The position numbers and the translations under genes were made by a program. Source: a virus. Taken from it: DNA of 46,689 nucleotides. Position 1 is the stretch's first letter. Each line of letters starts with the position of its first letter. The notes under the pieces were generated by a model. The model worked only from the letters and a program-made list of their open reading frames with translations. It ran no database searches and had not been told where the DNA came from. Location: IMG/VR virus record IMGVR_UViG_3300045988_030912, positions 1 to 46,689 of that record; one strand, 5' to 3'. Positions 4,413-46,689 of this stretch are shown in pieces.

Positions 4413-5119
4413 TATTCCGGGCTCCTTTCTGCGAAAAATCGGTGCCCGCCCACTTCGATGACGAAGATCTGACTCTCGTGGAAGCTGCTGCTCACGATGG
4501 CGGGGTTGTAGAAGTAGAGGATGGGCTCGTCGGTGACGGTCTCCCCGTCGTCGAATACGGCCGCCACGGCGTCCCTGACGCTTTGTGTGGGCTCGGGCCG
4601 GCGTGTGGTGTACTTGTACGCCACGACGGCCTCCGAAGGCGCTGTACCGCTTTTCTCGGCGGCATTGAGTATGCACTGCGCGACGAGCATCTGGCCCTCG
4701 AAGGACTCGCCGCCGGCTTCGGCCATGACCACGCGCTCGACCACGTCGCGCTCGGCGTCGGTCAGGGCGTAGCGGGGAGTGGGGGGCTCCTCGACTGCCG
4801 GGGCGGTCTGCTGCGTCTGCGTCACGATCGTCGGGAAGTAGCCAGCCGGCCACTGCGACGCGAGTGGCTCGGTGATGGTCGTGTTTTGGTCGACCGTCGG
4901 CTGGTCTGCGGTCACTGCCGTGACCACGATGTAGACGAGGGCGAAGATCAGAGTCAGCAGGATCAGCAGCGCCGTGAGCCTGCGGCGGCGGTACTTGGCG
5001 CGGCGCTTTTTTCGTGCTATAATACGGTCGCGGGATCCGTTGGCGGGCTGGCCGTCGGTATTCCTCGCAGGGGTCGCTCGGGCGTAACGGGCGGCCCCAT
5101 CTTTTGTTAATGCCTCCAT
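4412..5119 (-). CDS. Membrane-anchored SleB/CwlJ-like cell-wall hydrolase domain protein
   Basis: Basic N-terminus, one TM helix (LTALLILLTLIFALVYIVVTAV), and a C-terminal LTDAERDVVERVVMAEAGGESFEGQMLVAQCILN motif. The RBS is AAAGGAG. Confidence 0.65.
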   Translation of the reverse strand: MEALTKDGAARYARATPARNTDGQPANGSRDRIIARKKRRAKYRRRRLTALLILLTLIFALVYIVVTAVTADQPTVDQNTTITEPLASQWPAGYFPTIVTQTQQTAPAVEEPPTPRYALTDAERDVVERVVMAEAGGESFEGQMLVAQCILNAAEKSGTAPSEAVVAYKYTTRRPEPTQSVRDAVAAVFDDGETVTDEPILYFYNPAIVSSSFHESQIFVIEVGGHRFFAERSPE

Positions 5120-5413: not shown

Positions 5414-6124
5414 TCACCTCCGGGCCACGCGGGCCGGAAGGGTGCGCTCCGGGCGCGTCATGGTTTTGCTGAAGTCCTGCGCCTCGTATCTGACGCCGGT
5501 GATCCTGCGGCCGCTGACGCCGTACTTCGGGTTGTAGCCGAACAGGTTGACGTAGGTGCCGAGGTCGTCGCGCTCGTCGTCCATCGCCTTCAGCACCTCG
5601 AACAGGGCCAGCACGTCGTCGATGGCGCGGTGGCTGTTCTGCACCTTGTCCTCGAGGCCGTAGGCGATGATCGCGTTGGCGAGCTTGTGCGGGTAGGGTC
5701 TGCGGTCTTTGTAGACCGTCAGACTGTCGAGCCAGTCGATCCGGCCGACCTTGCTGCCGCGCAGCAGCTCCCGCAGGAAGCAGGCGTCAAACTGCGCATT
5801 GTGGGCGATCATCAGGATCGGGCCGGGCTGCATGAGCTTGGCGATCTGGCTGGCGGCCTTGGCAGGCTGCACGCCCTCGCTCTGGAGGATCCTGTCGGTG
5901 ATGCCGGTGAGGGTGACGATGTTCTCGGGGAGCGTCTCGCCCTCGGGCAGCTTGATGAAGGTGTCCATCTTGCCGGCGATCCGCAGGGCTCCGGCCGGGG
6001 TGCGCTCCACGCGCAGGGCGGCCAGCTCGATGATCTGGTGCTTGTCCGGCTCGAGGCCGCTGGTCTCCGTGTCGAAGATGACGAGGGCCTTGTAGCGATC
6101 CAGCAGGCTGCTCAGGTTACTCAT
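5414..6124 (-). CDS. DnaQ/epsilon-like DEDDh 3'-5' exonuclease
   Basis: Motifs VIFDTETSGL, AHNAQFDACFL and HRAIDDVLA. ATG at 6124 has AGGAGG upstream. It overlaps the stop of the preceding gene. Confidence 0.85.
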   Translation of the reverse strand: MSNLSSLLDRYKALVIFDTETSGLEPDKHQIIELAALRVERTPAGALRIAGKMDTFIKLPEGETLPENIVTLTGITDRILQSEGVQPAKAASQIAKLMQPGPILMIAHNAQFDACFLRELLRGSKVGRIDWLDSLTVYKDRRPYPHKLANAIIAYGLEDKVQNSHRAIDDVLALFEVLKAMDDERDDLGTYVNLFGYNPKYGVSGRRITGVRYEAQDFSKTMTRPERTLPARVARR

Positions 6125-6809
6125 GCGCCACCTCCTGCTCACGGGCGGCCCGCAGCGTGCCGAGCATGAAGGCGGCCGCGGCCTTGAACTGCTCCTCGGT
6201 GGCGAAACTGCTGCCGAAGCCCTCGATCAGATCCCTGACGATCTCGCCGGCGGTCTCTGCGTCGACGTCGGCCTCCTCGATGGAGATCAGGAGATCGGAG
6301 TCCAGATAACAAGCGGGGCGCAGGCCGTGGCTGCCGTAGCAGGCGAGGTGGTTGTTCAGCGAGCCGTCAGAGTAGACGAGGCGGGCGCTATGCTCGTACC
6401 CATTGGCGGCCGTACTGAAGGCCGTGCCCAGCCACCACCAGTCCGAAGCGTTGGGGATGACGTCGCGGTTGCGCCGGTACTGGTCGACGTTCAGCAGGAA
6501 GATGATGGCCTTGCAGGTGCCGTAGTCCTTCAGGCCGTCGTCGGTCGTCAGATCCACGTCGACCTCGTCGAATGCTTCGGAGCTCCCGGCCTTGTCGATC
6601 AGGGTGTCGAGGTAGGGGCCGTTCAGGTAGGTGCGGCTCGTGCTCTTGCTCCAGTCGTTGCAGTTGCCCTCGTCGAATGCTCGCAGCTCGGTGATGTCCT
6701 CAGCCAGACAGAGGGTGCGGCCTTCAGGGTCGTGCTCCAGTGCGATCCAGCGCTGGCCCGCGTAGGCGAAGGCGGCGCCGCGGTCGAGGGTCTTGAGTGC
6801 TTTCTTCAT
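6117..6809 (-). CDS. Remote DGR target protein (230 aa) carrying variable repeat VR2; paralogous to the N-terminal domain of the 569-aa target
   Basis: ATG at 6809 with AAAGGAG upstream (the ORF-track start at 6974 is an over-extension). Contains ...WWWLGTAF...SARLVYSDGSLNNHLACYGSHGLRPACYLDSDLLIS, homologous to TR and VR1. Confidence 0.85.
   Translation of the reverse strand: MKKALKTLDRGAAFAYAGQRWIALEHDPEGRTLCLAEDITELRAFDEGNCNDWSKSTSRTYLNGPYLDTLIDKAGSSEAFDEVDVDLTTDDGLKDYGTCKAIIFLLNVDQYRRNRDVIPNASDWWWLGTAFSTAANGYEHSARLVYSDGSLNNHLACYGSHGLRPACYLDSDLLISIEEADVDAETAGEIVRDLIEGFGSSFATEEQFKAAAAFMLGTLRAAREQEVAHE
6311..6389 (-). repeat. DGR variable repeat 2 (VR2)
   Basis: 79-nt alignment to TR 19813..19891. 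There are 14 mismatches, all at + strand T (template A). Homology breaks down beyond about 6389-6392. Confidence 0.85.
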
Positions 6810-7052: not shown

Positions 7053-7631
7053 TTAGGCCGTTGGCGATGCGCTCGTCAGCTCTTTCAGGTTTTTGGCGGC
7101 ACAGCAGGAGCAACTCACACGGTCGAGCTTTTCGTAAAGCCCCTCCCAGTCGTAGCCTGCGGCATAGCATCCGGCGAGGCACTCTGCTTCAGTGATCCCC
7201 CACTCTGCGAGAGGGAACGCTTTGCCCGGCGCCCGCTCTTTAGCGAGACGCTCTGGCTCGTCGGCTGCTATGCCTATGAGGACGACGTTGCCCTTGTTGT
7301 ATTTGTCGAGTGCCTTGGTCTTTTCCGTTGTGCCCCATCGGACTCCTCGGGCTCCGCACCACGAGTAACCGCAGTGTGTGCCGCCGCCCTTTTCGTTGAC
7401 CGGCTTCTCGAACATGAGGTAGTCGAAACTGACGGCGGGGTGGAGCGTTGTGAACTGGATGCCGTTTTTCTTGCATAATTGGCGCAGTTGTTCCATGTGG
7501 CGATACATTTGCGGGAACTCCCACCCAGTGTCAAAAAATACGCACTCGTCCGGCGGTGTCCCTCTGCGGATTTCCTCGAGCAGCAGGAAGGTTGAGTCCT
7601 TGCCGCCAGACAGTGAGAGCGTTGTTTTCAT
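7053..7631 (-). CDS. PAPS-reductase / PP-loop ATPase family protein
   Basis: N-terminal SLSGGKDS PP-loop and a C-terminal Cys cluster (CSCCAAKN). The RBS is AAAGGAGG. Confidence 0.75.
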   Translation of the reverse strand: MKTTLSLSGGKDSTFLLLEEIRRGTPPDECVFFDTGWEFPQMYRHMEQLRQLCKKNGIQFTTLHPAVSFDYLMFEKPVNEKGGGTHCGYSWCGARGVRWGTTEKTKALDKYNKGNVVLIGIAADEPERLAKERAPGKAFPLAEWGITEAECLAGCYAAGYDWEGLYEKLDRVSCSCCAAKNLKELTSASPTA

Positions 7632-8717: not shown

Positions 8718-9758
8718 TTAGGCGGCGGCCATGATGGTCTCCAGATGCCCCTCAAACCGGGCCGCAGCGGTCTCGAAGTCGAAGATCTCGCGGGGGTAGT
8801 TGTTGAGCCATGCCTCGATCCGGGCGACCTCCTCCTTGCTGACGCTGGCGAAGCTGGTGCCCTTCGGGAGCCAGCGCCGGATCATGCGGTTTTGGTTTTC
8901 GTTGCTGCCGCGCTCGTATGAGCTGTACGGGTGGCAGTAGTAGACCTTCGTGCGCTTACCCTTGCCCCGGCGCTTCTTCTCGATGCCTTCGCAGTCGGAG
9001 AACTCGACGCCGTTGTCGCAGGTGATGGTCTTGAAGATCTCGGGGAAGTGTTTGCCGAACTTCCACTCGATGCGGTTGAGGGCCTTCACGACGCTGGCCG
9101 TGGTGCGGTCAGGCATGAGGAGCATGAACTCGTAGCGGGTGAGCCGCTCGGTCAGCACCAGCAGCGTCTCCTTGGCGTGGCCGGCGCTGACGATGGTGTC
9201 CATCTCCCAGTGTCCGAAGGTGTCGCGGGTGTCGACCTCGTCCGGCCGGTTTTCGATGCTCTCGCCGGCGGGCGGGCGCGTGACTCTGACCTTGCGCTTG
9301 GTGTTCTTCTTTTTCGGCTTCTCGGGGAGATCCTCGATGGTGATCCGACCAAAGACGCCGAGCTCGATGTAGCGGTAGAGGGTGGGCTTGCTGATGGTGA
9401 CGGAGAACTCGAGGCCGAGCCGCTTGATCTCGCCGAGGACTGCGCCCGGGCTGTATCGCTCGTCGGCGATCTTGGTCTCGATATAGTCGGCGAGGGCGTA
9501 GTCGTTGCCGAGCTTGATCGGGGCGCCCTTGGCCTTCAGGTTATCCCGGTAGCGCTCGTCGGCGATGTCCGGGCTGTATCTGATCTCGGTTGTGTAGTCG
9601 CTGTTCAGGTGCTCATAGGTGCCGCGCTTCAGCTCCCGGTAGACGGTGCTAACGTGGAAGCCGAGCTCGTCGGCGGCCTGCTGCTTGCTCTTGCCGGCCT
9701 TGATCTTTTCCTCCAGCCGGATGCGGTCGGTCATGGTCAGATGTCTGAATTTTCCCAT
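8718..9758 (-). CDS. IS30-family DDE transposase/integrase (346 aa)
   Basis: N-terminal HTH (SKQQAADELGFHVSTVYRELKRG). DDE triad context: HWEMDTIV, ITCDNGVEF, YSSYERGSNENQN. The RBS is GAGGAGG. Confidence 0.9.
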   Translation of the reverse strand: MGKFRHLTMTDRIRLEEKIKAGKSKQQAADELGFHVSTVYRELKRGTYEHLNSDYTTEIRYSPDIADERYRDNLKAKGAPIKLGNDYALADYIETKIADERYSPGAVLGEIKRLGLEFSVTISKPTLYRYIELGVFGRITIEDLPEKPKKKNTKRKVRVTRPPAGESIENRPDEVDTRDTFGHWEMDTIVSAGHAKETLLVLTERLTRYEFMLLMPDRTTASVVKALNRIEWKFGKHFPEIFKTITCDNGVEFSDCEGIEKKRRGKGKRTKVYYCHPYSSYERGSNENQNRMIRRWLPKGTSFASVSKEEVARIEAWLNNYPREIFDFETAAARFEGHLETIMAAA

Positions 9759-14218: not shown

Positions 14219-15940
14219 TTAGGCCACGGGGTAAGTAAAGGCAACCATATAGCTGTTGCCCGTAAAGCCATTATTGGCCGTCATTCTCCCATCTGCGGTC
14301 ACTGAAATTCTAAGCGGTTCATTACTTTCGCTGCTTCCGCCTGTTCCGTAGGGAGAAAAGCCATAATAAAGTTGTTTGCCCGATGCTGGCTTTGGAAGCC
14401 CCGAAAAAATGACAGTATAGCCGGATGCTTTTTCTCTCACGGTTATATAGGCGTTAAACTGACACACTCCATTCTTGACGCAATAATAATTATCCGCTGC
14501 GCCAAGCGTGTAATTTGTGCCGCCTCCAAGAATTGAAGTGATTTCATTTACAGTATCCGCAACGCCGTTTGTAATTCTTTCCTCAATCTGCTTGCTACTC
14601 CATGTGCTGTCCTCGCTCACGGCGGCGTCGTCGATGGCGGCCCCGTCTTTCCCCGGCTGCCCCTGCGGGATGCCGAGGTTGACCTTGTACTGCCCGGGGA
14701 CGTCGGGATCGGGGACGACCTCAGACGCGGCAGGCTCGTCAGGGCCGAGGGTCGTGGTGGCGCCGCCGATCAGCGTGGGCGTGGTGCCTGCGGGGCCTTG
14801 CGGGCCCTGTTCTCCCTGTGGGCCTGCGGGGCCTGCCGGGCCTTCAGCTCCGGGCTCACCTTGCGGCCCTGCGGGGCCTTGCTCGCCCTGCGGCCCCTGC
14901 GGGCCTGCGGGGCCGGCGTTGCCGGCGGGGCCCTGTTCTCCGGCGGGGCCTTGCTCGCCCTGCGGGCCTGCGGGGCCTGCCGGGCCGGTAGCTCCGGGCT
15001 CGCCCTGCTCACCTTGCGGCCCCTGTTCGCCTGCCGGGCCTGCCGGGCCCTGCTGACCTTCGGGGCCGGTGGCTCCAGCGGGGCCCTCGGGGCCCTGCGG
15101 GCCTTGGATGCCCTGCGGCCCCTGCGCACCACGGAGGGCGAGGAGCTGCCAGAAGGGATCGTCGGAGAGGCCGGTGGTGGGCGCCTCGTTGGTGGGGTTG
15201 TCTTGCTTGCAGGCGTAGGAATTGCCGTCGGTGTGGGTGATGTAGTCGTTTTTGGTGTAGGGAGGATCCGCGGCCACGTCGTAGTCGCCGCGGGGGTTGA
15301 TGGCCGAGACGGCGCTCTCGCCGGGCTCGCCCTGTGGCCCCTGTGGGCCTTCGGGGCCTTGGATGCCCTGCTCGCCCTGTGGGCCGCGCTCTCCCTGCGG
15401 GCCCTTCTCTCCGGCGGGGCCCTGTGGGCCTTGGATGCCCTGCGGGCCCTGTTCTCCCTGCGGGCCGGCCTCCCCGGGATCGCCCTGCGGCCCCTGCGGG
15501 CCGGCAGGGCCTTGGAGCCCTTGCTCGCCTTGCGGGCCGGTGCCGCCGGGGTTGCCCTGCGGCCCCTGCGGGCCGGCGGGGCCTTGGATCCCCTGCGGGC
15601 CTTCGGGCCCGGTCGCTCCGGCGGGGCCGGCAGGCCCCTGAGCACCTTCAGCGCCCTGCGCCCCGGTGGGGCCCTGTGGGCCGGTGGCACCCGGAGGGCC
15701 TTGGATGCCCTGCTGCCCGGCGGGGCCCTGAGCGCCTTCGGGGCCCTGCGGGCCGTCCATGACGGTGAGGGTCTGCGTCTTTGTGGTGCCGTCGTCCAGC
15801 GTCCACGCAAAGACGACCTCGCTGCCGCCGGCCACGGGATTGATCGACTGGATGGTGCAGTTTTTTCCCTTCAGGGCGCCGCCGCCGATGACAGTCTCCT
15901 CGGTGTACTTCTTAGCCAGTACCAGTGCCAAAAGATCCAT
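14219..15940 (-). CDS. Collagen-like (Gly-X-Y) tail fibre with a globular C-terminal domain
   Basis: Two long GXY blocks ([13 protein letters not shown]...) are separated by a globular insert of about 60 aa. The last ~125 aa are beta-rich. The RBS is AAGGAGG. Confidence 0.85.
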
Positions 15941-16773: not shown

Positions 16774-18483
16774 TTATGCGAAGTTGCCGCCGATGCTCTG
16801 GATGTAGCAGGTCTCGGTCGCGGAGCCGCGCAGGAGCTTCGCCTTGACCTTCACGCCCCACGCATCCGCGGTCTTGGTCGTGTTGGTGAACAGGTGCTTG
16901 GTGCCGTTGAGGACTTTGGTGCTGATGTCCTCCCATGTGGGCGCTGCGTCGTTGCCGTTGTTGCAGATCCAGACGCTCAGGGTGCAGCCGGCCGGGAAGT
17001 GGCCCTGAATGTTGACGAGGGCCTTGGTCGGCATATCGTCGGCAGCCATCGCGAGAGTCTGCTCGAACTCGATGACGGTCACGGCCTTGGTGAAGGTCAG
17101 CGTCCGGGTGGCACTGTCGCCCATCGCGTCGGTCGCCGTGACGGTCAGGGTGTGCCCGCCGTTGACGAGCTTCAGCCATGCGTCGGCGTCGAGGCTCAGG
17201 GTGTTGGTATTGCCGAGGGTGGCCGTGAAGCTCCTCAGCGTGGCGCCGTCCAGCTTCTCCACGACGGTGACGGCGTGGTTGTCCGCGTCGGTGACGGTGT
17301 ACTCGAAGCTCGGGCCGGTGGCGCTGAAGCTGCCGAGATCCTTGTCGGTGCCGCTGATGACCGGCGACCGGTTGTTGGTCACTGTGCGGCTCGGCCCCGT
17401 GGTATAGGCAGACTCCGCGCCCACGGCGTCGTATGCCTTGACGCGGTACTGCACGGTCGACCAGCCGAAGGTCACGGCCGCGGTGTAGGAGCGGTTGGCG
17501 CCCTTGTAGATCTGCGTCCATGTGCCGTCGTTGGCCTTCTGCTCCAGAATGTAGCCGGCGAGGGCTCCTTCGGGGTCGGTGGAGGCGCCCCATGTGATCG
17601 TCGCGCTCTGGCCGCCGTACACGGTGGCCGGCACGTTGATGGAGGCCGGGGCAGTCGGGGCCTCGTTGTAGATCAGGGTGTAGCAGCCGTCCGCGTCGGT
17701 GGAGTCGGAGATCAGGAGATCGGAGGACAGATTACAAGCGGGGCGCAGGCCGCTGAGGCCGCCGTAGGCGCTGCCGTAGCTCAGCGTGCCGACAGGGCGG
17801 ACGAGGCGGGCGTAGTCGGCCGACCCGGCATAGGCGTCCCGCAGCCAGTAGTACCACGCAGCATTGGCGGCCGGGTTGCTGGAGTAGTTGGAATTGGCGA
17901 CGCAGGCCGCGGTCACGGTGGCGATGCGGCTGGCGTTGTCGCTGAACATGGCGATCTTGCTGCCGCAGGTGTGGTCGCCGGTCAGGCCGACCTCAGTGCA
18001 GGACAGGAGGAATACCTTGTCGACGCAGGTCTCCGTCCCGCCGCCGTCTGTGGAGCTCTTGCCGACGGTGAGGGTGGTCTCCAGCAGGGCGGCCCGCTCC
18101 TCGGCCGTGAAGGCGCTCAGGAAGCCGGCGATGGTGTCGTAGGCGTTGGTATTGCTCCAGACGTTTGCCGTGGAGGGAGGGGCGTCAGCGCTGTGCTGCG
18201 CGGTGTACCACGATCCAGCCGCCGCCGGGCTGTTGAGCCACTGCCGGATGTTGGAGTAGATATAGCGGTTATTGCCGTAGCTGACGCGGTTGCTGTCGCC
18301 GTTGCTCGCCTCCTTCGCGTCGAAGCACAGGAGCTTGATGATCTGCTCGGCGACGAGGGTGACGCTGCCCGACGGGTAGCCGGTGTGATTTATGTCGGCG
18401 ATCTTCCAGATGATCGGGGCGCTGTGAAGGCTGCCGAACTTAACCTTTGCCCCGGTTGCGAGGCTGCTCAGTTTTTGGGCCAT
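16774..18483 (-). CDS. DGR target protein 1 (569 aa): N-terminal variable ligand-binding domain carrying VR1, followed by Ig/FN3-like repeats
   Basis: VR1 covers aa ~219-249 (AGSADYARLVRPVGTLSYGSAYGGLSGLRPA). The C-terminal ~310 aa are beta-rich repeats (ITWGASTDPEGALAGYILEQ..., YRVKAYD...). An AAAGGAG RBS lies inside the RT 3' end. Confidence 0.9.
   Translation of the reverse strand: MAQKLSSLATGAKVKFGSLHSAPIIWKIADINHTGYPSGSVTLVAEQIIKLLCFDAKEASNGDSNRVSYGNNRYIYSNIRQWLNSPAAAGSWYTAQHSADAPPSTANVWSNTNAYDTIAGFLSAFTAEERAALLETTLTVGKSSTDGGGTETCVDKVFLLSCTEVGLTGDHTCGSKIAMFSDNASRIATVTAACVANSNYSSNPAANAAWYYWLRDAYAGSADYARLVRPVGTLSYGSAYGGLSGLRPACNLSSDLLISDSTDADGCYTLIYNEAPTAPASINVPATVYGGQSATITWGASTDPEGALAGYILEQKANDGTWTQIYKGANRSYTAAVTFGWSTVQYRVKAYDAVGAESAYTTGPSRTVTNNRSPVISGTDKDLGSFSATGPSFEYTVTDADNHAVTVVEKLDGATLRSFTATLGNTNTLSLDADAWLKLVNGGHTLTVTATDAMGDSATRTLTFTKAVTVIEFEQTLAMAADDMPTKALVNIQGHFPAGCTLSVWICNNGNDAAPTWEDISTKVLNGTKHLFTNTTKTADAWGVKVKAKLLRGSATETCYIQSIGGNFA
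17736..17830 (-). repeat. DGR variable repeat 1 (VR1)
   Basis: 95-nt alignment to TR 19813..19907. There are 18 mismatches, all at + strand T (coding-strand A of TR). Confidence 0.9.
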
Positions 18484-19618
18484 GTGTGTCGTCTCCTTTC
18501 GGGTTTTGAGGTTTCAGCTCCGGGAAATAACCGAAGAAGTAGGAGTCCATGCTCTGCCGCAGGTGGTAGGTGTTGCCGTGTGAGATATGGCCGCACCAGC
18601 TCGCGTAGGAGTGCAGGACGCTCTCGTGGGTCATCTTGCCGGCGTCCACCAGCCAGTGGTATTTGCGGATCTTCCGCTTCATGTTGTCGATGCTCTTGGC
18701 CCGCACCTTCCTGACCACCTTGCCGGTGTGCGTGAGGTAGGTGTGGAAGCCGAGGAAGTCGATGCCGTTCTTCAGCGGGAAGATCTGCGTCTTTTTGTTC
18801 AGCCGCAGGCCGAGGGGCTCGATGTACGCCTCGATCTTCTTCAGGATCCGACGGAGCAGCAGCTTGTCGTTGCTGATGATGTAGAAGTCGTCCATGTATC
18901 TGCCATAGACGAGGCCGAGGCCGTCCCGCAGCCAGTGGTCGAAGTCGTCGAGGTAGAGCAGCGCGAGGAGCTGGCTGCTCTGGTTGCCGATCGGGATGCC
19001 CGGATCCGGCGTGCTGTCGATGACCAGCCACAGGAGCCACTCGACGAAGTCGCGCAGCTCCTCGTCGTCGATGACTGCGAGGGCCTTCTTCGCCTTCTCG
19101 TAGCACACAGCATGGAGAAGGGTGTAAAAGAACTTTGAAAAATCTCCCTTGAGCACCCACCCGTCGGCGTAGTCCCACTCCTCCATCGGCCGGTATGGCA
19201 GGCCGGCAGCCCGGCGGGCTGCTTCGTCCGCTGCCTTGCGGCTGAAGAAGTAGTGGCGCATGGCCTTGGCGAGTCGGTCGAGGCCGAAGTGGGTGCCCTT
19301 GCCGACCTGCCCCGCATAGTTGTCCCGGATCAGACGCCGGGAGAAGCAGGGCTCGAGGACGTTGTCGCATAGGGAGTGCTGCACGACCTTCCCCTCGAAG
19401 TCGATGGCGAGCACGAGGCGCTCCTTGGGCTCGTACACCTTGAAGGGGTAGTACGGGCCGAAGGTGTACTCGCGCCGCTGGAGCCTTCGGGCGAGGTCGT
19501 CGGTGCGCTCCACGGCCTCCATGCGGTAGCGCATGGCCGTGGGGTTGTCGCGCTTGCCGCAGCGGGTTTTCCTATATGCGGCATACAGCGCGGTGAAGCT
19601 GTTGACGATGTTCTCCAT
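18440..19618 (-). CDS. DGR reverse transcriptase (alternative GTG start at 19654)
   Basis: YGRYMDDFYII (YxDD catalytic box) and IGNQSSQLLALLYL ([I/V/L]GxxxSQ, a DGR-clade hallmark). It lies next to TR and Avd. Confidence 0.9.
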   Translation of the reverse strand: MENIVNSFTALYAAYRKTRCGKRDNPTAMRYRMEAVERTDDLARRLQRREYTFGPYYPFKVYEPKERLVLAIDFEGKVVQHSLCDNVLEPCFSRRLIRDNYAGQVGKGTHFGLDRLAKAMRHYFFSRKAADEAARRAAGLPYRPMEEWDYADGWVLKGDFSKFFYTLLHAVCYEKAKKALAVIDDEELRDFVEWLLWLVIDSTPDPGIPIGNQSSQLLALLYLDDFDHWLRDGLGLVYGRYMDDFYIISNDKLLLRRILKKIEAYIEPLGLRLNKKTQIFPLKNGIDFLGFHTYLTHTGKVVRKVRAKSIDNMKRKIRKYHWLVDAGKMTHESVLHSYASWCGHISHGNTYHLRQSMDSYFFGYFPELKPQNPKGDDTHGPKTEQPRNRGKG

Positions 19619-19812
19619 GATTAAAAAATCCCTGCCGTGGATAGCTCCGGCCACGCTTTGCGTGCGCCGCCGGGAGCATCAGCAGTCCTGTGTTTACCCA
19701 TGACCGCGCCGGTCAGACGGCGCAGGCTGCGGGAGGGATACGCCTTCCTTGGATGATGGTGCATTGTGTTCGCCGCCCTCCGCGGGCGGGTAATAAGTCG
19801 AGCGATCCATCG

Positions 19813-19907
19813 AAGCGGGGCGCAGGCCGTTGTTGCCGTTGTAGGCGTTGTTGTTGTTCAGCGTGCCGTCAGTGTTGACGTTGCGGGCGTTGTTGGCCGA
19901 CCCGGCA
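19813..19907 (-). repeat. DGR template repeat (TR). It is separated from the RT gene by a spacer: 158 nt to the GTG at 19654 (spacer 19655..19812), or 194 nt to the ATG at 19618.
   Basis: The coding-sense TR reads gcc ggg tcg gcc AAC AAC gcc cgc AAC gtc AAC ACT gac ggc ACG ctg AAC AAC AAC AAC gcc TAC AAC ggc AAC AAC ggc ctg cgc ccc gct. That is 11 AAC codons and 26 adenines. Confidence 0.9.
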
Positions 19908-19941
19908 CGAAAAATACAAGGCGTACCCCACGGGGCCGCTG

Positions 19942-20331
19942 TTAGGTCTTTCTGACCATCTTGGCAGCCCTCTCCTTATCCGTTTTGTACCATTTGGCGG
20001 TCTGGTTTTTTACGCCGGCCGCCATCCTCGCCCAGTAGGCGAAGGCGTCATCGCCGAGCCCGCCGAGGATCTCGTGGGCGAGCTCGATGTGGTGGATCAG
20101 CTTGCGGCAGTTGCGCAGGGCTGACCGCTGCGCCCGGAAGCGCAGCTCCCGCTCCTCCGGGTCGGCGAGGAGCAGGTCGTTGGCCTCCATGAGGTCAGCG
20201 ACCAGATCGCTCGCTTCATTCATCATCCGTTGAGCGAGGCCGAGCCTCTCCTTCTTCGGGAAGATGTTGGCGTTGCGGGTCTTGATGTAGGTGTGCTTCT
20301 CGAGCTCCTTGGCGTCGGTGATGACCTGCAT
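19942..20331 (-). CDS. avd: Avd-like accessory variability determinant (four-helix-bundle, basic, 129 aa)
   Basis: Its size, helical pattern and basic C-terminus fit Avd, and it sits immediately upstream of TR. The sequence resembles the 23S-rRNA-IVS/Avd family. Confidence 0.7.
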   Translation of the reverse strand: MQVITDAKELEKHTYIKTRNANIFPKKERLGLAQRMMNEASDLVADLMEANDLLLADPEERELRFRAQRSALRNCRKLIHHIELAHEILGGLGDDAFAYWARMAAGVKNQTAKWYKTDKERAAKMVRKT

Positions 20332-20344
20332 CTCCGGGAGCTTC

Positions 20345-20599
20345 TCACGGCCGAAGGGCGGGCGGCCTACATTTTCCTGCCCTGATGGCCTCGAGTGTGT
20401 GCTGTTTGCCGTAGTACCTCACCTCCTCGCCTTTGATGGTGATCCTCGCGCCGCCGCCGTCGTAGGTGGTGCCCTGAATGACGATCAGGCCGTCATCCCG
20501 CTCGCAGCGGGAGCAGGGCAGCGCCAGCTCGACGAACAGGTGCGCGATGATGCAGGACGCCTCGGGCAGCGGGATCGGGGTGTACCCGCGGCCGTTCAC
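20345..20599 (-). CDS. Hypothetical protein (84 aa, GTG start)
   Basis: The ORF starts 3 nt after the fibre-gene stop (possible coupling). No clear SD. Confidence 0.4.
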   Translation of the reverse strand: MNGRGYTPIPLPEASCIIAHLFVELALPCSRCERDDGLIVIQGTTYDGGGARITIKGEEVRYYGKQHTLEAIRAGKCRPPALRP

Positions 20600-46630: not shown

Positions 46631-46689
46631 CTATTTCTGGCGCCAGCTCTCGCCGGTGAGGGTGATCCCTCTGCACATTTCCATGAGCC
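46631..46689 (-). CDS. 3' end (including the TAG stop) of the DnaC-like gene that continues at window position 56 onward across the circular junction
   Basis: ...LMEMCRGITLTGESWRQK* reads through the 55-nt overlap. The TAG is at 46631-46633. Confidence 0.8.
   Translation of the reverse strand, partial: LMEMCRGITLTGESWRQK
46635..46689. repeat. Terminal overlap copy 2, identical to 1..55
   Basis: 55/55 identity with the window start. Confidence 0.95.

Follow-up and report, generated by a model that had tools for sequence, protein, structure and literature searches.

The window, i.e. the whole stretch of 46,689 nt analysed here, represents the complete, ~46.6 kb genome of a temperate myovirus-like phage of the human gut; related prophages are carried by Oscillospirales isolates. 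Among the tail-fibre genes of the presumed late operon, the minus strand carries a cassette in the order avd, TR, a 194-nt spacer, the reverse transcriptase (RT) gene and target gene 1, with Baseplate_J, Tail_P2_I and tail-collar genes flanking it on one side and a collagen-like fibre gene on the other. The original prediction of a complete diversity-generating retroelement (DGR) in this region holds for every component it named but missed a second target, VR2 in target gene 2, 11.4 kb away. We found neither a sigma-70-like promoter nor an intrinsic terminator on the minus strand between 16 and 21 kb, which fits, without proving, co-transcription of the cassette with the late genes; the window as a whole returned no Rfam match at gathering thresholds and no tRNAs.

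Components of the cassette and the second target gene

The gene avd (accessory variability determinant; 19942..20331, minus strand) encodes a protein of 129 aa with a pI of 9.4, matching PHROG 3206 'Avd protein of DGR' with E = 5.5e-25. Its AF2 model (pLDDT 92.4) is all-helical and forms a four-helix bundle, for which Foldseek returned as top matches 2gsc and 2rld of the 23S rRNA IVS family and the Bordetella Avd 4dwl (TM 0.74-0.86); superposition onto 4dwl gave TM 0.74/0.85 and an rmsd of 2.2. The fold comparison alone found these proteins, as single-sequence and profile searches of the PDB returned no Avd or IVS protein. The basic helical Avd-like protein proposed earlier is thereby borne out, and the HMM check suggested for it succeeded in part: PHROG 3206 identified the family, but the match to NCBIfam DivGenRetAVD (0.0062) stayed below cutoff and Pfam gave no match.

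Downstream of avd follow TR (19813..19907, minus strand; 95 nt), which is noncoding and lies between avd and RT, and the noncoding spacer (19619..19812, minus strand). The spacer measures 194 nt and not ~158 nt as first estimated, a difference of 36 nt that follows from placing the RT start at the ATG at 19618. We consider this ATG the most likely start and prefer it to the GTG at 19654: the RT predicted by gene callers has 392 aa, and the stretch upstream of the ATG is noncoding, since it carries 1-, 2- and 4-nt indels among relatives.

The RT (18440..19618, minus strand; 392 aa) matches Pfam RVT_1 and PHROG 1423 (E = 1.9e-115). Its best match among solved structures is the Bordetella phage DGR RT (bRT, 8ub7) with E = 6.8e-36 and 127 bits, compared to E = 1.5e-10 and 44 bits for a group II intron RT and E = 7.5e-9 and 38 bits for a retron RT. 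The alignment to bRT runs end to end (residues 7-359), placing GIPIGNQSSQ opposite GIPIGSLTSQ and RYMDD opposite RYMDD, so that both motifs reported earlier, YMDD and IGNQSSQ, are found in the RT reading frame. These sequence comparisons support the assignment of the enzyme as a DGR-clade RT.

Target gene 1 (16774..18483, minus strand) overlaps with its start the end of the RT gene by 44 nt and encodes a tentaclin-type protein of 569 aa, in which an N-terminal DUF6273 domain (Pfam, residues 40-253, E = 2.9e-35) is followed by Ig/FN3-like domains. PHROG 10993 matches over the full length (E = 1.2e-232), weak matches were obtained to FN3 at 275-370 and to Big_9/Big_13 at 386-465, and the C-terminal ~100 residues are highly conserved in 26 homologues. 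This architecture fits the tentaclin layout, in which 1-4 Ig-like domains come after an N-terminal DUF6273/C-lec domain, and the protein is 74% identical to nd4_tgt1 over all 569 residues. A PDB profile search matched residues 13-262 to the N-terminal DUF6273 domain of an IgA protease (9qa6, E = 6.7e-16). For residues 1-280, AF2 worked from a shallow alignment of 70-90% identical sequences; the resulting model reached a pLDDT of 46.7 and was left out of the fold search. Models of the nd4 protein show a C-type-lectin-like (C-lec) fold with the variable segment as a surface beta-hairpin (PMC10743442), suggesting by analogy that the diversified domain of target 1 may adopt this fold, as reported for its 74%-identical nd4 counterpart.

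Target gene 2 (6117..6809, minus strand) encodes a protein of 230 aa with a single DUF6273 domain (Pfam, E = 3.1e-11; PHROG 9958, E = 1.3e-64) and no signal peptide visible by eye. It resides in the replication module, placed between the genes for a PAPS-reductase-like protein and a DnaQ-like exonuclease and with SSB and a replication initiator encoded nearby, 11.4 kb from the cassette and far from all virion genes.

Adenine-specific differences between TR and the two VRs

VR1 (17736..17830, minus strand; 95 nt) lies in frame within target gene 1, covering residues 218-248 at the C-terminal end of the DUF6273 domain. As predicted, TR and VR1 align over 95 nt without gaps on the minus strand, and all 18 mismatches (9 A>G, 5 A>T, 4 A>C) fall on adenines of TR; non-adenine mismatches, named beforehand as speaking against a DGR, are absent from the exact alignment. 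A recount confirmed 26 adenines in TR, 22 of which sit in 11 in-frame AAC codons, and the translations quoted for TR and VR1 proved exact. The probability of 18 randomly placed mismatches all landing on the 26 adenine positions is 1.4e-13, and the homology stops abruptly at both ends. A degenerate TR pattern, in which every A is replaced by N, matches three sites in the whole window with zero mismatches, i.e. TR, VR1 and VR2, with none being expected from shuffled sequences. VR2 (6311..6389, minus strand; 79 nt) corresponds to TR positions 17-95 and lies in frame in target gene 2; it differs from TR at 13 positions, every one an adenine of TR (P = 9e-9). Its 5' boundary is shorter than that of VR1, the first 16 aligned positions including non-A mismatches.

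At the 3' end, GGCCTGCGCCCCGC is common to TR, VR1 and VR2, and past its GCTT a 29-nt flank is present in both VRs only. This flank reads GTAATCTGTCCTCCGATCTCCTGATCTCC behind VR1 (17707..17735, minus strand) and GTTATCTGGACTCCGATCTCCTGATCTCC behind VR2 (6282..6310, minus strand), the latter being identical to the former at 26/29 positions. Each of the eight amino acids common to both flanks is encoded by the same codon in either, the rare TGT and GAT among them (P ~0.007). By sequence, a putative IMH with a GC-rich start is present at the 3' end of the VRs and can be distinguished from the IMH* in TR, and the 29-nt flank is a candidate for the VR-specific part of the IMH, which may act in cis. 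No GC-rich inverted repeat of at least 8 nt was found within ~130 nt downstream of VR1 or VR2; such repeats downstream of the IMH are present in only 34% of DGRs and hence not universal (PMC5758913).

The spacer is strongly conserved, with a mean column identity of 92% among 14 diverse relatives and with indels that are not multiples of three. Compared to nd4 it is 86% identical, whereas the third codon positions of avd and RT reach 67-74%. It probably forms the 3' part of the DGR RNA, which would recruit RT-Avd and prime cDNA synthesis. Support for a defined secondary structure is thin: the RNAalifold consensus contains 45 pairs with 99.4% of cells paired, of which only two pairs covary, and the single-sequence fold has a z-score of only -1.07.

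Signs of past activity and proposed mechanism of the element

Among 36 related loci, 544/563 mismatches between TR and VR1 are located on adenines; 11 TR alleles were seen across related loci. The TR of the window differs from that of nd4 by six substitutions, five of them at non-A positions, and in each phage both cognate VRs mirror all six. As the substitutions of the TR allele were copied into the cognate VRs, information must have flowed from TR to VR after the two phages diverged. A closer relative (L074; 97.2% identical) shares its TR with the window and has almost the same avd and RT genes, yet its VR1 is different: it deviates from TR at 13 A sites and one non-A site, and a codon is inserted within the (AAC)4 run. 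Judged from these sequence comparisons, the data indicate past activity of the DGR. The exact proteins of target 1 and target 2 are each encoded on six public contigs, VR1 is the same on 100%-identical contigs, and the source metagenomes include SRR6451819 and SRR6451820. A metagenome scan with a 72-nt stretch of the TR allele of the window gave no match, and a shorter pattern retrieved other lineages only. The end of one contig (L072), 13 nt past VR1, had been considered a sign of population heterogeneity; this was dropped, the VR1 of L072 being identical to that of the window.

Taken together, we conclude with a probability of about 90% that this phage carries a complete and intact Avd-type DGR with two targets. 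By homology to the Bordetella phage BPP-1, we propose a mechanism according to which a complex of RT and Avd would bind the TR-spacer RNA and prime cDNA from the spacer, TR would be copied from its GC-rich 3' end, and misincorporation would occur opposite template adenines. The cDNA would then replace VR1 in the tentaclin-type protein of 569 aa encoded immediately downstream of RT, within its N-terminal DUF6273 domain, and also the 79-nt VR2 in the 230-aa single-domain DUF6273 protein 11.4 kb away. The 3' limit of this transfer may be set by the common GC-rich segment together with the VR-only flank, and its 5' limit by the point at which homology ends. This could generate up to ~15^11 variants in the case of the VR1 segment and ~15^10 in that of VR2; in the published nd4 models the diversified segment is a surface beta-hairpin and presumably a ligand-binding face.

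That the RT stems from another class of retroelement (group II intron, retron or DRT/Abi defence RT), with the repeats being ordinary paralogous segments of two DUF6273 genes, has a negligible probability and is already contradicted by the present results. The best NCBIfam models for the RT are those of group II introns (TIGR04416; 78 bits against a cutoff of 300), Drt3a (49 against 200) and retrons (41 against 235), and no DGR RT model was returned from this collection; these scores are all far under cutoff, though, and the bit scores against solved structures clearly favour bRT, an Avd gene adjoins, and the third copy of the repeat, TR, is noncoding, lies beside the RT and differs from both VRs at its adenines only. 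A reading in which VR1 is the sole real target and VR2 a decayed or coincidental copy that is no longer written appears very improbable. It would account for the shortness of VR2, for the non-A mismatches among the first 16 aligned positions, and for the second target being present in only 39/54 nd4-like genomes (PMC10743442). Within its 79 nt, however, VR2 has the adenine-only mismatches given above, the non-A bases specific to the TR allele of its own phage recur in it, in the window as well as in nd4, its GC-rich 3' end and 29-nt flank are retained, and targets of one DGR with unequal 5' boundaries are on record (PMC5758913).

The identity of the VR1 and VR2 alleles on all six contigs encoding the exact proteins, and the lack of near-identical variants in the 90% clusters of target 1 and target 2, would also be compatible with a DGR that was formerly active and is now inactive in this lineage, its VRs being frozen records of earlier homing. 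We regard this as improbable: all parts are intact, the RT reading frame is full length with its catalytic motifs, Avd, TR and spacer are under purifying selection, and L074 combines the same TR with a different VR1; moreover, several of the six contigs may derive from related samples, as their adjacent run accessions suggest. An intact two-target DGR is thus the reading we retain. The location of target 2 in a replication/early module, far from the virion genes, leaves a small probability that it is not a receptor-binding virion protein as has been assumed. It is conceivable, albeit unlikely, that it acts as an intracellular, non-structural diversified binder, e.g. of variable host factors or defences; if true, one template of a single phage DGR would serve to diversify an adhesin of the virion as well as an effector inside the cell.

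Comparison with known systems

The prototype DGR of Bordetella phage BPP-1 (mtd-avd-TR-brt) shares with the window the homologous RT (8ub7), the Avd fold (4dwl), adenine-specific differences between TR and VR, an AAC-rich TR, a GC-rich 3' segment in both repeats and a TR-RT spacer. In BPP-1 the target lies upstream of RT and its VR at the C-terminus, whereas the window has two targets, target 1 being downstream of RT with its VR in the N-terminal domain. Once past the GC-rich segment, TR and VR of the window have unrelated flanks, while those of BPP-1 differ at a few bases; no inverted repeat comes after the VRs of the window, unlike in BPP-1, and its Avd has no detectable sequence similarity to Bordetella Avd. 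The sole solved structure with sequence similarity to the diversified domain is the DUF6273 domain at the N-terminus of ThomasA, an IgA protease of Thomasclavelia (PDB 9qa6; PMC12402451); this domain differs in being part of a cellular sortase-anchored protease without DGR diversification and is dispensable for catalysis (PMC12402451). The Faecalibacterium prophages Lelie and CP11 (PMC11792537) likewise use one DGR for a 'large' and a 'small' DUF6273 target, with the VR at the C-terminal end of DUF6273 and gut Oscillospirales as hosts; they are likened here by description, belong to other phage lineages and show only distant target similarity.

The DGR described here has been published before as the two-target DGR of the nd4-like ("tentaclin") phages (PMC10743442), a group described in 2023 of which the window phage is an ordinary further member. 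Phage nd4 (GenBank OR777945; Baykov et al. 2023, PMC10743442) has the same gene order avd-TR-RT-tgt1, genome size and synteny, a 569-aa target 1 with the VR at the end of the N-terminal DUF6273 domain and Ig-like domains thereafter, and a second small DUF6273 target ~11-12 kb away beside an exonuclease gene. The DGR regions are 82.7% identical at the DNA level, with protein identities of 92% for Avd, 84% for RT, 74% for tgt1 and 65% for tgt2. The two phages differ in their VR sequences and by an overall divergence of ~13-18%; the nd4 TR is 93.7% identical, with AAC-AGG-AAC-AAC and 25 A compared to (AAC)4 and 26 A in the window, and the window phage lies outside the identical-TR genome set analysed in PMC10743442. 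While the current understanding is unchanged by our results, they add an intact, well-delimited two-target DGR with a distinct TR allele in phages of gut Oscillospirales, and the private substitutions of the set of TR alleles, mirrored in both cognate VRs, clearly display TR-to-VR transfer. The two target genes, unrelated in other respects, have the 29-nt flank in common; it is a candidate target-recognition signal and could help in retargeting DGRs.

Template repeat, variable repeats and their targets

All features of the diversity-generating retroelement (DGR) are located on the minus strand of the window. The template repeat (TR, 19907..19813) and the first variable repeat (VR1, 17830..17736) give a gap-free alignment of 95 nt with 18 differences, every one of them at a TR adenine (9 A>G, 5 A>T, 4 A>C); for mismatches placed at random over the 95 positions, the probability that all 18 hit the 26 adenines is 1.4e-13. 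The adenines are concentrated in 11 in-frame AAC codons, which contain 22 of the 26, and the homology between both repeats ends abruptly on either side. Exact re-alignment and recounting agree with the original prediction in the repeat length, the mismatches and their restriction to adenines, the number of adenines and AAC codons, and the peptides read from TR and VR1.

A search of the entire window for repeats revealed a third copy of the repeat, VR2 (6389..6311, minus strand), matching TR positions 17-95, in which 13/13 mismatches are again on adenines (P = 9e-9). Replacing each A of TR by N yields a degenerate pattern that fits exactly three sites of the window without any mismatch, i.e. 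TR, VR1 and VR2, while none is expected by chance. VR2 lies in frame within an ORF of 230 aa (target 2; 6809..6117, minus strand) with matches to Pfam DUF6273 and PHROG 9958, a second target missed in the single-target picture proposed originally.

Target 1 (569 aa; 18483..16774, minus strand), the gene of which overlaps the end of the reverse transcriptase (RT) gene by 44 nt, matches PHROG 10993 along its entire length and carries a DUF6273 domain at residues 40-253 (Pfam, 2.9e-35), followed by weak Ig-like and FN3 signals. VR1 encodes residues 218-248, at the C-terminal end of the domain. Among solved structures, the closest sequence relative is an N-terminal DUF6273 domain, that of the ThomasA IgA protease (9qa6; 6.7e-16, residues 13-262), which is dispensable for catalysis and without assigned function. 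A lectin fold of target 1 could not be confirmed by AF2, the model reaching a pLDDT of 46.7 with too shallow an alignment.

TR, VR1 and VR2 have the 3' ending GGCCTGCGCCCCGCTT in common, beyond which VR1 and VR2 share a flank of 29 nt (26/29 identical), the TR sequence there being unrelated. The flank encodes the peptide C-x-L-x-S-D-L-L-I-S in both targets, and codon choice agrees at 8/8 residues in common, even for the rarely used TGT (12% of Cys codons) and GAT (13% of Asp codons), with a joint probability of ~0.007. This codon identity suggests either DNA-level constraint or gene conversion, and the flank is a candidate for the VR-specific part of the IMH, the signal at the 3' end of the VR. 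No inverted repeat was found downstream of VR1 or VR2; inverted repeats following the VR are present in only 34% of DGRs (PMC5758913). A related locus, L021 (IMGVR_UViG_3300014955_000038), contains a VR2-like copy 4026 nt upstream of the TR end, not ~11-13 kb downstream, and the 3' flank of this copy is exactly that of the VR1 type. Possible causes are a rearrangement, gene conversion involving both targets, or an assembly artefact.

Reverse transcriptase, Avd and the spacer

The RT (392 aa; ATG 19618 to 18440, minus strand) matches Pfam RVT_1 and PHROG 1423 (1.9e-115). Its closest solved structure is the DGR RT from Bordetella phage BPP-1 (bRT; 8ub7, 6.8e-36), compared to 1.5e-10 for a group II intron RT and 7.5e-9 for a retron RT, and all curated NCBIfam models of group II, retron, DRT and Abi RTs score far under threshold. 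The alignment with bRT spans residues 7-359 and places GIPIGNQSSQLLA opposite bRT GIPIGSLTSQLFA and RYMDD opposite RYMDD, in support of the DGR-type RT recognised in the original prediction.

Upstream of TR, avd (20331..19942, minus strand) encodes a protein of 129 aa with a pI of 9.4, which matches PHROG 3206 'Avd protein of DGR' (5.5e-25), has no Pfam match and matches the NCBIfam Avd model only below threshold. The AF2 model, based on 18 homologues, is confident (pLDDT 92.4) and shows four helices; the best Foldseek matches are 2gsc and 2rld of the 23S rRNA intervening-sequence family and Bordetella Avd 4dwl, the latter with TM 0.74/0.85 and an rmsd of 2.2. Family search and fold comparison both substantiate the Avd-like gene proposed earlier. 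NCBI and UniRef list a 91%-identical homologue from Flavonifractor plautii (P0024) as 'sugar ABC transporter ATP-binding protein', apparently a misannotation. Immediately upstream of avd, a conserved ORF of 84 aa (20345-20599, minus strand; PHROG 21058) is present in all relatives examined and may be part either of the DGR or of the tail-fibre gene set.

The spacer between TR and RT had been estimated at 158 nt with an RT start at GTG 19654. Gene callers and homologues place the start at ATG 19618, and the stretch between TR and this ATG shows indels of 1, 2 and 4 nt among relatives and is therefore noncoding, resulting in a corrected spacer of 194 nt. Mean column identity of the spacer is 92% among 14 diverse relatives. 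Compared to the gut phage nd4 (OR777945) it is 86% identical, with third codon positions at 67% in avd and 74% in RT, and the spacer is accordingly subject to purifying selection as noncoding sequence. The BPP-1 DGR RNA recruits RT-Avd and primes cDNA synthesis. By analogy, the conservation is as expected for a DGR RNA of this kind, suggesting a corresponding function of the spacer. The consensus fold comprises 45 pairs (99.4% paired), only two of which covary, the single-sequence fold has a z-score of -1.07, and a comparison of the spacer with Rfam returned no match; an RNA secondary structure is plausible from this modelling.

Evidence for activity from related loci

The cassette is ~82.7% identical to nd4 and MT835922 (Megablast); both contain TR and VR1, and nd4 additionally VR2. 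The TR alleles of the window and nd4 differ by six substitutions, five of them at non-A positions, mirrored in each phage's own VR1 and VR2. Judged from these alignments, such allele-specific TR bases in the cognate VRs are the mark left by TR-to-VR transfer since the lineages separated. A 37-nt query from the TR 3' segment retrieved 52 IMG/VR and 15 genome loci with 11 TR alleles, and in 36 TR/VR1 pairs 544/563 mismatches are on A.

The most telling relative for DGR activity is locus L074 (ENA ERZ28615665). Over 6.2 kb it matches the window at 97.2% identity; the TR is the same, and avd and RT hardly differ. Compared to this TR, the VR1 of L074 (ending at locus position 4751) is changed at 13 A sites and at a single non-A site and carries a 3-nt insertion within the (AAC)4 run (AAC AAC TTC TAC TAC versus four AAC in TR), resulting in a target of 570 aa. 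Counting against current activity, no variants of target 1 or target 2 were found in their 90% clusters, and VR1 is unchanged on contigs 100% identical to the window; the exact proteins of target 1 and target 2 are each present on 6 contigs. Taken together, the DGR is real and complete and apparently functional. Another related locus, L003 (IMGVR_UViG_3300018494_001016), has the TR allele of the window. In its VR1, located 2074 nt downstream from where the TR ends, three non-A positions differ (T>C, C>T, C>G) and match another TR allele of relatives; either recombination has exchanged the TR, or the latest copying into the VR was from an older TR.

Genome context and comparison with known systems

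Positions 1-55 of the window are repeated exactly at 46635-46689, an assembly overlap showing that the window represents an entire phage genome, circular (or terminally redundant), of ~46.6 kb, with a G+C content of 64%. Baseplate_J, Tail_P2_I and a tail-collar-like gene lie upstream of avd, and a CBM-like ORF, a collagen-repeat fibre, holin and endolysin downstream of target 1. The collagen-like protein (573 aa; 14219-15940, minus strand; Pfam Collagen 2e-40), with its long G-X-Y repeat blocks, is probably a tail fibre, and its gene accounts for the large families of tandem repeats that the repeat search detected. A DDE (rve) transposase-type protein with HTH_38 (346 aa; 8718-9758, minus strand; PHROG 4646 'transposase', 9.4e-135) is encoded next to HTH regulators, and the phage may integrate by this transposase-family enzyme rather than by a tyrosine or serine integrase. 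Isolates of Butyricicoccus pullicaecorum and of an Oscillospiraceae bacterium carry related prophages in their genomes, and close Avd and target homologues carry names from Flavonifractor plautii and Oscillibacter.

The target 2 gene (6117-6809) resides within a replication and nucleotide-metabolism module away from the virion genes, flanked upstream by a PAPS-reductase-like gene (7053-7631) and downstream by genes for a DnaQ-like exonuclease (5414-6142), SSB (1836-2273) and a replication initiator (889-1770). This position sits awkwardly with the published guess of the second DGR target being an Mtd-like receptor-binding protein. Because of this location a non-structural protein can be considered, the least conventional reading and one we regard as improbable.

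This exact DGR system was described for nd4 and 54 nd4-like genomes (Baykov et al. 2023, PMC10743442): it has two targets, the second of ~234 aa with a single C-lec domain, and in either target the variable residues make up a beta-hairpin on the surface. Pairs of large and small DUF6273 targets are also reported for Faecalibacterium prophages (PMC11792537), and non-adjacent targets within a phage, differing 5' target boundaries and indels opposite AAC are documented variations of DGRs (PMC5758913). The complete DGR of the original prediction stands in its components, while the spacer length and the number of targets had to be revised. With Avd 92%, RT 84%, target 1 74% and target 2 65% identical to the nd4 proteins, the DGR is a moderately divergent addition to the published group and not a new type of system.
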